This document shows, piece after piece, positions 18,147 to 21,422 of a DNA stretch of 64,000 nucleotides. A program made the translations under genes and the position numbers. How positions within the stretch are numbered: position 1 is the stretch's first letter; every line of letters starts with the position of its first letter. The stretch is from Candidatus Iainarchaeum sp. GTDB taxonomy: Archaea; Iainarchaeota; Iainarchaeia; Iainarchaeales; JAAZKV01. Below the pieces are notes generated by a model. It saw only the letters and a list, made by a program, of their open reading frames with translations. It did not search any database and had not been told where the DNA came from. The stretch covers positions 186,359 to 250,358 of the forward strand of contig JAPLVR010000003.1 of assembly GCA_026397015.1 (NCBI GenBank), in the 5' to 3' direction.

Positions 18147-21100
18147 ATGCGAAGACAAGTTTTGTTCTTATTTATGATTCTTCTTTCGGCGACTGTTTTT
18201 GCGGACTACTGTGTTAACAGGACTGGACCCGGTTATCTTGTGGGTTGCGGTGTGCTAGGAGTACAAAGCGGGTTTTCAACCTGCATTTATAACACCGACG
18301 CCGCCATGACTAAAATTAAGACTGTATTGAATTATACTGGACCGAACTGCGGAGTAAGAGTTACTTGTTACAATATTGGCAGTGGCGCTAGTGCTGGTCT
18401 GCAAGTTTGTGCGGGATATGATACTGGTTGTTATGCGCCAGGCGCAGGGTCGTGCGTTTGCAGCCCGAATAGCCAATTTGCCCCTGAAACATGTTCAAAT
18501 GGTTTTACCTATAAAACTTGTAACGGTAATGGTGACGGTTATTCACAGGCGAACTGCCAGCGGATTGGCGGTAACTGCAGCGGTGGAGACATATTTTATA
18601 CATCCAGGCTTAACACATCCTGCCCCCCAATAAACGGGCAATGTGTTCAAGACGTTTATGGCGCCCTAAATGGCCTGGGATACTGGGAACAATCCTCAGG
18701 GGCAAGGGCTTACTGCGATACTGTGAATTATCATGGCCTTCAGGTGGCACAGGCATGCGTTAAAACAGATGGTTCATGTATCCCAAAGGTCTGTACAGCG
18801 AATGCGTATGAGACGAGGGTGTGCACCAACAACAAGGGATTCCAATGGAGACAATGCAACGGATCTGGAACAGGATACAACGCCGACTGGTCAGCCTGCA
18901 TAACCATCCCGGGAGGAAACTGCACCACAACAACCGGCGACCAATTCTACACACTAAGAGCAAACACCACCTGCACCCAATCAGGACTAGCAGACGGATC
19001 ATCATGCAGCCAAAACTACACTAACCAATTAAACTCACTAGGATACAGCGGACCATACACAGGAACAAGAGTGTATTGTGAAAGCGGGTCATATGCAGGT
19101 TTTACAGCGGGAGAGGTGTGCGTAAAAACAGATGCAGCCTGCAACCCACCAATCTGCACAGCAAACGCATACGAAGCAAAAGTATGCGCCAACAACAAAG
19201 GATTCCAATACAGAAAATGCAACGCAAACGGAACAGGATACGAACCAGACTGGCAACCATGCACAGCACTGCCTGGAGGGGATTGTAAAACAATAACCGG
19301 GGATTTATTTTATACATCAAGACTGGAAGGCAAAAACTGCTCCCAATACGGGTTCGCAGGACAGACTGGATACTCGGCATGCGTACAAAGCATTAACAGA
19401 AGTGTTTTGGACGCAGTAGGATATACGGGACCATACATCGGAGCAAGAGCATACTGCGACGATGAAACATACCAAGGCGCAACTGCAGCAGAAGCATGCG
19501 TAAAAACAGATTCTTCTTGCGGAGCACCGTGCACAGTGGGGCAAATAGAAGCACAAACCTGTGACAATGACAATGGATACAAGTACAGAACATGCAACTC
19601 AACAGGAACGGCATGGAACGACTGGACCACATGCGCACCGCTACCAGGAACAAACTGCGGAGCAGGAACAACCAAAATATTCTACAAAGCATTCCTCAAC
19701 AAAACATGTGCGGAAGTCGCCCAGGGAAGAACAAATGTCTGTATACAAGACGTATTCCAAATAGCGTGGAATAATGGGTACAGGGGCCTGGCAACGGGGG
19801 CAAAGGTATATTGTGATGATTACAGGACATCAAGCTTATACGGGGCAGGATTCTGCGTAAAGGTGGCTACGGAATGCGACCAGTCAGTCTGCACACCCGG
19901 AAAATACGAGGCAAGGGAATGCATAAACAAGAGGGCGGATACCAAAATGCCAAGCGGATATCAATACAGGCAATGCAACACAACAGGGCAAGCATGGGGC
20001 GACTGGTCAACATGCGCACCAATACCGGGAATAAACTGCGGAACCGGAATCACAAAAATATTCTACTACCCGAAACTCAACGTTACGTGTGCAGGGGTCG
20101 GGATACCGACAAGCGGACTATGCATACAAACAGTACTCCAACAAGCAAAAGCACTCGGATACACCGGACCAGAAACAGGCGCAAGAGCATATTGTGATAA
20201 TTACAGAACCGAAGATATATTCGGTGCGGGAGCATGCGTAAGAACGGACACAGGCTGCAATACCGGCTGCATATGCACCGACCAATACGACCCTGTTTGC
20301 GGAACAGACGGAAAAACTTATCCTAATGAATGCGCCGCGAGATGCGCGAAAATAGCGGTCGCGTATGAAGGCGAATGCAAAGAAAACTGCGCAAAGGAAG
20401 GGGAAGGAATCTGCAACACATGCACACCGGGAAGCGGACCAACGGAATGCTGCACCGGGCTGACAAAAATAACGCCCGCAAGTAAGCTAAATGATGATTG
20501 CACTTTGAAAAATATAGTCGGCGGACAATCATCAGTCTGCACCCATTGTGGAGACGACATTTGCGGAACCGGAGAAAACAAATGCAACTGTCCACAGGAT
20601 TGCAATCCCATTAAATGCGAAACAAGTAAAGATTGTTTAAGGGGTTGCATAGGGCCGAAAGCGACTTACGGTTCCTGCACGAACGGGCAATGTGTATATA
20701 CTAGATGTGAAACGGATGGCAGTGGCATTGACAGATGTGCTGCAGACACCGCACCGCCAACGTGCGACAAAAGATGCGACGCGGACTGCGAAACCAACGC
20801 GGACTGCATGGTTACTTGCGCCCAAAATTTATGCGCGATTGGCGAAACCAATTGTGCAGAATGCCCTGAATACACCTGCAACAGAGAATCCTGCGAGTGT
20901 GAGCCGGTAGTAGTACCTGTACCGCGGTTTAATTTGACAGTGCATACTGGCTGGAATATTTTCTCGATACCCGGAGCATTGAGCCTACTGAGCAATAATT
21001 GCGATTCAAGCAGATTTAGAATTTACGAATACACCCCCTCTTCAATACCTTGGTTTGTTCCTGTAAGCAACGTTGAAATAGGAAAGGCATATTTACTATA

Positions 21101-21422
21101 TTACCCTCTGGCAGATTGTTCGGTGAGAGGAACCATAACAGAGGCAATCAGTTCAAGCGAATTGCCGGCTGTCAGAACAGGCTGGAATTTCATACCTGTT
21201 CTTGTTGATATGATTGGAATGAAGGTGAGCGATCTTGTACCTGATTGTGGAGCCGTTAGGGCGTACTTCTACGATGCCGAAGCAGTTGGATTCGTTGACA
21301 TAACTAATACTATTTTAACTTCAAGTGATTTAGGCCAAGGATTCGGATTGTTTGCAATGAATGGCTGCACGGTTACAACACCATCGGAACCTGGCTTCCC
21401 TGCATTACCGGAGGCTGACTAA
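18147..21422 (+). CDS. giant Cys-rich secreted protein with five tandem ~120-aa repeats, a Kazal-like domain and a C-terminal beta-rich domain
   Basis: Signal peptide [19 protein letters not shown]. The repeat unit, CTANAYExxVCxNNKGFQxRxCN..GTGY..DW..C...PGGxC.T.TGD.FYT.R....C ... GYTGPYxGARAYCD....G....CVKTD..C, occurs five times (nt ~18480-20250, also visible as a DNA tandem). The Kazal signature is [27 protein letters not shown], and the module [20 protein letters not shown] is also present. The tool start is TTG 18132; the first ATG is at 18147. Confidence 0.75.
   Translation: [1091 protein letters not shown]

Follow-up and report, generated by a model that had tools for sequence, protein, structure and literature searches.

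An accessory archaeal gene coding for a Cys-rich protein with five 10-Cys repeats and a Kazal domain

What role could a large, disulfide-dense secreted protein carrying a protease inhibitor-like module play in an archaeon? The question is raised by an open reading frame (ORF) located at 18147-21422 on the forward strand of a 64,000-nt stretch of Candidatus Iainarchaeum sp. DNA (contig JAPLVR010000003.1, positions 186,359 to 250,358; hereafter, the window). A description made from the letters alone, the original prediction, had portrayed the product as a Cys-rich secreted protein of 1,091 aa composed of five tandem repeats followed by a Kazal-like inhibitor domain, and proposed a host-interaction or adhesin role, or protection from proteases, roles which the sequence allows and which are weighed below. 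The analysis reported here indicates that the protein carries one Kazal domain, identified as such by sequence, and five copies of a 10-Cys repeat that matches no described family, and that the gene is accessory, occupying a variable slot in an otherwise conserved gene order.

The gene and its 10-Cys repeats

The ORF extends uninterrupted over 3.3 kb, from an ATG at 18147 (a TTG at 18132 being an alternative start) to a stop codon at 21420-21422, and constitutes a complete coding sequence for 1,091 aa. The protein is dominated by Gly, Thr, Cys, Ala and Asn, with 98 Cys residues (9.0%), 11% Gly and 10% Thr, and contains 0.3% His. An identical 1,091-aa product is called on a 101-kb contig of an independent assembly (Logan SRR20698649), which bears out both the length and the Cys richness originally proposed. 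The NCBI model of the same gene, MCX6800890.1 (1,038 aa), named 'Kazal-type serine protease inhibitor family protein [Candidatus Diapherotrites archaeon]', starts at Met54 and so lacks the first three Cys along with the signal peptide; the 1,091-aa model is preferable. Archaeal markers encoded in the window comprise RpoB and RpoA, each from two adjacent genes, aEF-2, aEF-1alpha and RtcB, and the host is an archaeon as judged from the RpoB and RpoA gene splits together with the archaeal-type elongation factors.

The N-terminus (18147..18206, +) resembles a signal peptide, containing the sole 19-residue window with a Kyte-Doolittle hydropathy above 1.6, which is confined to aa 1-25. On inspection this segment looks like a Sec signal peptide, with a cleavage site placed by eye at VFA/DY; no further hydrophobic segment follows, consistent with the secreted character that had been predicted. 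Cys counts are even in every module, with 8 in the N-terminal region, 10 in each of the five repeats, 6 in the Kazal domain, 30 in the knot region and 4 in the C-terminal domain, as is expected with intradomain disulfides. The protein also contains 16 N-x-S/T sequons, 15 of which are located inside aa 24-647.

The five tandem repeats of approximately 120 aa are real. Repeats 1 to 5 are encoded, all on the forward strand, at 18456..18788 (aa 104-214), 18789..19151 (aa 215-335), 19152..19526 (aa 336-460), 19527..19886 (aa 461-580) and 19887..20267 (aa 581-707), as delimited by alignment and phmmer. Their lengths range from 111 to 127 aa, corresponding to 333-381 nt rather than the ∼330 nt proposed at first, and each contains exactly 10 Cys in place of a 10-12-Cys framework. 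Ten invariant Cys and a set of conserved Gly and aromatic positions form the framework common to all five. When one repeat is used as the phmmer query, the other four are recovered at 36-130 bits, as compared with scores of 3 bits or less for 50 composition-matched shuffles. Pairwise identity is 33-54%, and the repeats fall into two subfamilies, repeats 1-3 and repeats 4-5, with 54% identity within the closest pairs (repeats 2 and 3, and repeats 4 and 5) and 33-42% between the groups. Upstream of the array, the N-terminal 8-Cys region (aa 21-103; 18207..18455, +) includes a half-repeat at aa ∼45-98, detected by alignment and as domain 1 of the repeat-profile hmmsearch, that resembles the C-terminal half of the repeat unit.

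The proposal that the repeats are also visible in the DNA holds in part. DNA-level similarity between repeats is patchy, 60-82% with a period of 363-381 nt, with repeat 5 showing 74% nt identity (DNA family D2), and Tandem Repeats Finder reported no repeat array at 18147-21422. The silence of this program is attributable to the divergence of the repeats and therefore argues against a recent array. Between repeats, pN values of 0.27-0.49 are observed vs pS values of 0.57-0.90; synonymous sites are saturated, and the duplications are therefore old. For the closest repeat pairs dN/dS is ∼0.25, a rough value since dS is saturated. What is seen is an ancient set of duplications kept under purifying selection rather than an array in the course of expansion.

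No described family could be attached to the repeat. Searched against Pfam at E values up to 10 it matched nothing but a chance 'GYR motif' (E 2), no match was obtained in NCBIfam, and the best match of the repeat profile to PDB sequences had an E value of 0.69. A HMMER scan of 1.84 billion representative proteins with the repeat profile returned five matches: the protein itself, one true relative (P0002), its frameshifted twin (P0004) and two spurious matches, P0003 and P0005, rejected on inspection as low-complexity, eukaryote-like repeat proteins. In a word-indexed search of 5.8 billion clusters the full protein recovered only itself and the repeat profile only the fragment of the frameshifted twin. 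Two scans of GTDB genomes, which used the full protein and a three-repeat alignment respectively, yielded no relatives, a scan of JGI metagenomes with the degenerate pattern GY.GP..G.R[AV]YC[DE] returned only the already known landfill contig that carries the relative described below, and a scan of viral contigs for the repeat found nothing.

Repeat 2 was the unit chosen for structure prediction. The AlphaFold2 model, built from eight aligned sequences, has a pLDDT of 90.2 and a pTM of 0.77 and contains six strands and one helix, from which the repeat fold would be a compact alpha/beta arrangement in which a sheet is packed with one helix and Cys are sufficient for five cystines. Foldseek comparison of this model with PDB gave a best E value of 1.1, with query-normalised TM-scores of 0.23 or lower, and comparison with BFVD a best E value of 0.58; Foldseek is insensitive to small cystine-rich domains, a property that bears on both of these negatives. 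The possibility that the repeat is a diverged Kazal domain was rejected, the hhalign probability being 0.3%, a value obtained with some reference Kazal sequences entered by hand. The original statement that the repeat belongs to no nameable family thus survives profile searches of Pfam, NCBIfam and PDB sequences as well as a confident model compared with PDB and BFVD folds, one true relative having been found. By sequence profile the repeat therefore matches no described family and it possibly represents a new fold; a disulfide-locked repeat that is predicted to fold well and is without detectable relatives or fold neighbours is a candidate for one, and might also provide a stable scaffold.

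The sole relative of the repeat is part of a subtilase gene. MFA5357895.1 (P0002, and P0008 in the locus comparison below) is annotated as 'S8 family serine peptidase' in an archaeal metagenome-assembled genome, GCA_041653195.1, and was seen in four independent assemblies, one of which is a municipal-landfill metagenome. Its aa 1-212, made up of a signal peptide, the half-repeat and a complete repeat, run colinear with aa 5-216 in the 1,091-aa protein, and the best local alignment of the two proteins is 41% identical. This repeat part runs straight into the C-terminal two-thirds of a subtilase (GVAPEA...SAGNNG...GKSMASPHVAG). The N-terminal part of the subtilase is encoded by a separate upstream ORF, with a lipobox, a 4-Cys knot, an I9 propeptide and the DTG and HGTH motifs. 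In the split S8 gene (9219-11317 of locus L004, and also in L001, L002 and L005), the TGA stop of the first ORF and the TTG start of the second overlap within AGTTGA, in different frames, and the second ORF has its own signal peptide, 1.5 repeat copies and the Asn and Ser motifs. Programmed frameshifting is an unlikely explanation of this arrangement, as no slippery site precedes the stop and the TTG start overlaps the TGA. The relative looks like the product of a recombination in which the 5' end of a repeat-protein gene was brought into a subtilase gene. It resembles the 1,091-aa protein as the only other carrier of the 10-Cys repeat, but differs in having 1.5 copies and a subtilase fusion and in lacking the Kazal domain, the knot region and the C-terminal domain. 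A functional link between repeat and protease may be hinted at by this fusion; it is a single case, with which accident is equally consistent. As for the split S8 gene itself, it could represent a pseudogene, a scar left by recombination or a protease made of two chains. The original prediction had named a pseudogene in relatives as a possible refutation, on which this fused 5' fragment bears obliquely only.

The Kazal module and the C-terminal half

Directly after repeat 5, aa 708-744 (37 aa; 20268..20378, +) correspond to a non-classical Kazal domain, as indicated by Pfam, PDB matches and a residue check. When aa 701-752 are scanned alone, Kazal_2 (PF07648) is matched at 43.4 bits (cut-off 22.8) and Kazal_1 (PF00050) at 37.1 bits (cut-off 21), and Kazal inhibitors in PDB match aa 708-744 at E values of 6e-9 to 1e-5, including ovomucoid (6e-9), Galleria silk protease inhibitor 2 (GmSPI-2; 5e-8), rhodniin, LDTI, the Anemonia elastase inhibitor and SPINK1. 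The Kazal-type signature named in the original prediction is confirmed by these matches. The six Cys (C708, C710, C718, C729, C733 and C744), spaced C-x-C-x7-C-x10-C-x3-C-x10-C, occur in Kazal order and would be compatible with a 1-5/2-4/3-6 disulfide pattern. The predicted reactive loop is C710-T-D712/Q-Y-D, with C710 at P3, T711 at P2, D712 at P1 and Q713 at P1', according to the contact-residue scheme of PMC1236909; P15' Asn is N727 and the core VCGxDGxTYxNxC is conserved. In each sequence-level respect examined the module is a member of the Kazal family. It appears on the segment scan only, being absent from the Pfam hmmscan report for the entire 1,091 aa; whole-protein Pfam and NCBIfam scans gave no real matches. 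Automated annotation of Cys-rich proteins of this kind can miss genuine domains. Assignment to the multi-Kazal type, exemplified by ovomucoid, LEKTI and the five-domain shrimp SPIPm, was rejected since there is only one Kazal domain in 1,091 aa.

Among known inhibitors, the LDTI, rhodniin, infestin and GmSPI-2 Kazals (MEROPS I1) share with the module the Cys spacing, the VCGxDGxTYxNxC core, the P3 Cys and the P15' Asn, with PDB E values of 5e-8 to 2e-7. These, however, are small animal inhibitors of one to few domains, whereas here a single module, with Asp as the predicted P1 residue, is embedded in an archaeal protein of 1,091 aa. GmSPI-2 strongly inhibits both subtilisin and proteinase K (PMC4169406). 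P1 Asp is uncommon in animal Kazals and is a mark of the oomycete Kazal effectors EPI1 and EPI10, which are subtilase inhibitors (PMC7382257). EPI1 and EPI10 of Phytophthora may provide the best functional analogy for the 1,091-aa protein, as they are secreted by an organism living on another, have Asp at P1 and target proteases of the subtilisin family (PMC7382257, PMC1236909). In contrast to the archaeal protein they are small, eukaryotic and Kazal-only, some with two disulfides, they are without repeats, knot region or C-terminal domain, and there is no homology beyond the Kazal domain.

Archaeal Kazal domains are rare but already catalogued, as arCOG10350, with a sponge thaumarchaeal symbiont among the carriers (PMC6697440), and as the Kazal H-group among DPANN-unique fold groups (PMC13607799). 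These archaeal Kazals are uncharacterised, and an architecture with five orphan repeats is not described in either catalogue (PMC6697440, PMC13607799). Nothing established is overturned by the present protein, archaeal Kazals and orphan Cys-rich metagenomic repeats both being known phenomena.

A second Kazal carrier was observed 14 kb downstream. ORF 35655-38663 (+) codes for a secreted protein of 1,002 aa with 7.3% Cys, in which a Kazal domain, CVCTDVYEPVCGVDKKTYGNECNANC, is located near the N-terminus with the same predicted P1 Asp and CTD loop, followed by an antistasin-family domain (Pfam 25.1 bits, cut-off 21.2) and then by many Cys modules. The two proteins are alike in their identical Kazal spacing and CTD loop (phmmer E 2.8e-12), in a CC-x-GL module and in their absence from the syntenic relative; ORF 35655-38663 differs in having no 10-Cys repeats, an N-terminal Kazal position, an antistasin domain and a different remainder. 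The combination of Kazal and antistasin domains in this neighbour indicates a protease-inhibitor theme in the secretome.

The segment that follows the Kazal domain, aa 745-920 (20379..20906, +), is a knot region with 30 Cys, the modules of which recur elsewhere in the window when compared by phmmer with the window ORFs. A CC-x-GL plus CGxxxCxxxExxxxCPxDC module is common to ORF 35655-38663 (E 3.4e-4), and the CET..DC...C.CEP modules at aa 864-920 are common to ORF 63332-64000 (E 7.6e-5). A scorpion toxin-like identity of the knot region was rejected, with matches below threshold (Pfam Toxin_2, E 0.029; PDB 2k4u, E 0.015).

The last 171 aa (aa 921-1091; 20907..21419, +) form, on reading of the sequence, a C-terminal domain with two GWN-x-[FI] motifs. 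It had been described as Cys-free and beta-rich; it contains 4 Cys and is better termed Cys-poor, and its beta-rich character is putative. No Pfam match, no PDB sequence match and no homologue in the word-indexed search were obtained for this domain, which is a candidate for anchoring or binding.

A variable slot and the roles it may serve

Gene context was compared between two genomes, with window positions 1-41,900 aligned to L004, the 21-kb locus (1-21317) around P0008. The two are syntenic, with backbone proteins 60-87% identical at the aa level. The 18147-21422 gene is absent from this nearest syntenic relative, and orthologues for a comparison of repeat copy number were not found. It belongs to a block at ∼18040-24340, composed of the gene itself, a 73-aa ORF, a leuA-like gene and a Bles03-family gene, that is missing at the matching L004 position, as are ORF 11733-13982, ORF 16022-16723, ORFs 25828-31895 and ORF 35655-38663. 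The upstream edge of the slot is an intronless tRNA-Asp (GTC) gene at 17961..18034 (+), called by ARAGORN and matched by the Rfam tRNA model at 55.4 bits. A tRNA-Asp-derived, att-like direct repeat, a sign of an integrated element, was looked for downstream of the gene and none was found. The 18147-21422 gene is accessory, an indel gene whose variable slot follows tRNA-Asp. Large secreted or surface proteins are encoded by at least five insertions that are specific to the window, and the split S8 gene by one that is specific to L004; all large secreted Cys-rich genes sit in indel slots of a conserved backbone, which indicates fast turnover of the secretome.

Tentatively, we prefer to explain the product as an extracellular protein, accessory and specific to the strain, of a DPANN (Diapherotrites-type) archaeon; its Kazal head would inhibit subtilisin-type proteases, with the repeats serving as a stalk or array and the C-terminus as a means of attachment. 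The protein would be exported via its N-terminal Sec-type signal peptide, its modules would fold as independent disulfide-locked units, and N-glycosylation of the 16 sequons is probable. By the standard Laskowski mechanism, the Kazal loop would occupy the active site of its serine endopeptidase target as a substrate does and thereby block it; P1 Asp and the nearest relatives with a solved structure predict subtilisin-type (S8) enzymes as the target class. The orphan 10-Cys units, five and a half in number, could act as a protease-resistant stalk or a binding array holding or presenting the inhibitor, and attachment to a partner or to the cell envelope could be the task of the Cys-poor C-terminal domain. 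Its role would then be to protect the symbiont surface, or the symbiont-host interface, from secreted proteases. We infer all of this, from export and disulfides through glycosylation, inhibition and target class to the stalk and anchor roles, from sequence. The intact ORF in independent assemblies, the even Cys numbers, Kazal scores above the cut-offs and purifying selection on the repeats argue for this explanation. So do the single N-terminal hydrophobic segment, the scarcity of His, the conserved Kazal spacing and core, the presence of GmSPI-2 among the best PDB matches, the P1 Asp of EPI1 and EPI10, the second Kazal carrier downstream, the confident model of repeat 2 and the absence of the gene from the syntenic relative. 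An archaeal symbiont neutralising extracellular subtilases is an idea made directly testable by the Kazal head with its predicted P1 Asp.

Several observations weigh against it. Kazal-like domains of some eukaryotic matrix proteins, such as agrin, SPARC and follistatin, are thought to be non-inhibitory. There is one Kazal head in 1,091 aa, leaving ∼95% of the protein without an assigned activity, and Asp at P1 is a weak binder for many serine proteases, which makes the target class a guess. No protease gene is present in the 64-kb window. Neither a C-terminal hydrophobic helix nor a sorting signal (transmembrane or PGF-CTERM type) was found by hydropathy scan and reading of the C-terminus, so that surface attachment is conjecture, and the single-sequence AlphaFold2 model of the C-terminal domain has a pLDDT of 41 and is unusable.

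If the Kazal domain is no more than a small structural disulfide module, the protein could instead be an adhesin or host-contact protein, its repeats and C-terminal domain recognising a ligand that the host cell or a solid surface presents. Adhesins typically have such long, modular ectodomains rich in disulfides and sequons, and the gene shares its strain specificity with those of the other large surface proteins in the window. No known adhesion or lectin domain was detected in the Pfam and NCBIfam scans, however, and the Kazal loop framework is fully conserved, including the P3 Cys, the P15' Asn and all six Cys; the recurrence of the same CTD loop in the paralogous Kazal, beside an antistasin domain, further argues for selection on inhibitor function. 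We consider an adhesin unlikely, though the most probable of the rivals. Conservation of the Kazal contact residues also speaks against a structural component of the envelope or matrix, such as an S-layer accessory or a disulfide-cross-linked coat, in which Kazal and knots would be stable building blocks with no specific ligand. Such a component would fit a composition dominated by Gly, Thr, Cys, Ala and Asn and the sharing of small Cys knots among several secreted products of the window, but absence from the syntenic relative indicates that the protein is not a core envelope component, and this explanation appears improbable.

A slightly more improbable alternative extends inhibition to the repeats, each 10-Cys unit being a new protease-binding or inhibitor domain in a heterotypic inhibitor with up to six or seven heads. 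It draws on the only other occurrence of the repeat being inside an S8 subtilase gene of the sister genome, on the combination of two inhibitor families, Kazal and antistasin, in the paralogous neighbour and on the compact predicted fold with Cys for five cystines. The S8 association is a single case, though, and looks like a rearrangement in which the 5' end of a repeat gene was fused with the 3' portion of an S8 gene, and neither sequence nor profile nor fold links the repeat to an inhibitor family. In its boldest form, which we regard as more doubtful again, the repeat would be a fold not seen before and the founder of a new protease-binding family, the protein a six- or seven-headed inhibitor deployed by a DPANN episymbiont against subtilases of its host or neighbours, and the presence of the repeat in the split subtilase a sign of real functional coupling. 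Least credible of all, and very unlikely in our view, is that the accessory gene is decaying or not expressed, or that its Cys-rich product binds metal inside the cell. A family found in essentially one lineage and a relative that retains just a fragment speak for this reading; against it stand the uninterrupted 3.3-kb ORF, a pN well below pS between repeats, retention of all ten framework Cys in five of five repeats, the signal-peptide-like N-terminus and the near absence of His.

Neighbouring features

Approximately 40 nt 5' of the ATG, TTTAAATA (18101..18108, +) was noted on direct reading of the sequence as an archaeal TATA-box-like element, and it is a putative promoter element of the 18147-21422 gene. 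On the other side, a 73-aa ORF at 21426-21647 (+) begins 3 nt past the main stop codon and was called as a gene in the Logan assembly. It codes for little beyond a signal peptide with a lipobox-like LLLGC and one four-Cys knot, CGDRMCNGRETASTCPNDC, and is probably co-transcribed with the main gene.

In both genomes the knot of ∼19 aa, CGxxxCxxxExxxxC[PS]xDC, turns up in many secreted proteins, frequently directly behind a lipobox-like signal peptide. Sites were observed at aa 801-819 of the 1,091-aa protein, in 21426-21647, in ORF 11733-13982 (two copies), in ORF 35655-38663 and at 9219-9962 of L004, and Pfam scans of the segments and ORFs with this knot reported no family for it. ORF 63332-64000 (+), which is cut by the window end, is another secreted Cys-rich ORF.

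At the L004 position corresponding to the upstream edge of the slot (∼13330-13540), the tRNA-Asp orthologue contains an insertion of ∼110 nt just past the anticodon region and is without an ARAGORN call; the insertion is presumably an archaeal tRNA intron. Downstream of the slot, ORF 25828-30351 (+), absent from L004, codes for a secreted, Cys-poor protein of 1,507 aa rich in Asn, Thr and Ser. Its identification as alpha-2-macroglobulin, which would have made it a third inhibitor, was rejected as it has no thioester motif and an MG2 match below threshold; it probably belongs to the large surface or S-layer-type proteins. ORF 30384-31895, located directly after it, is BatD/CARDB-like.

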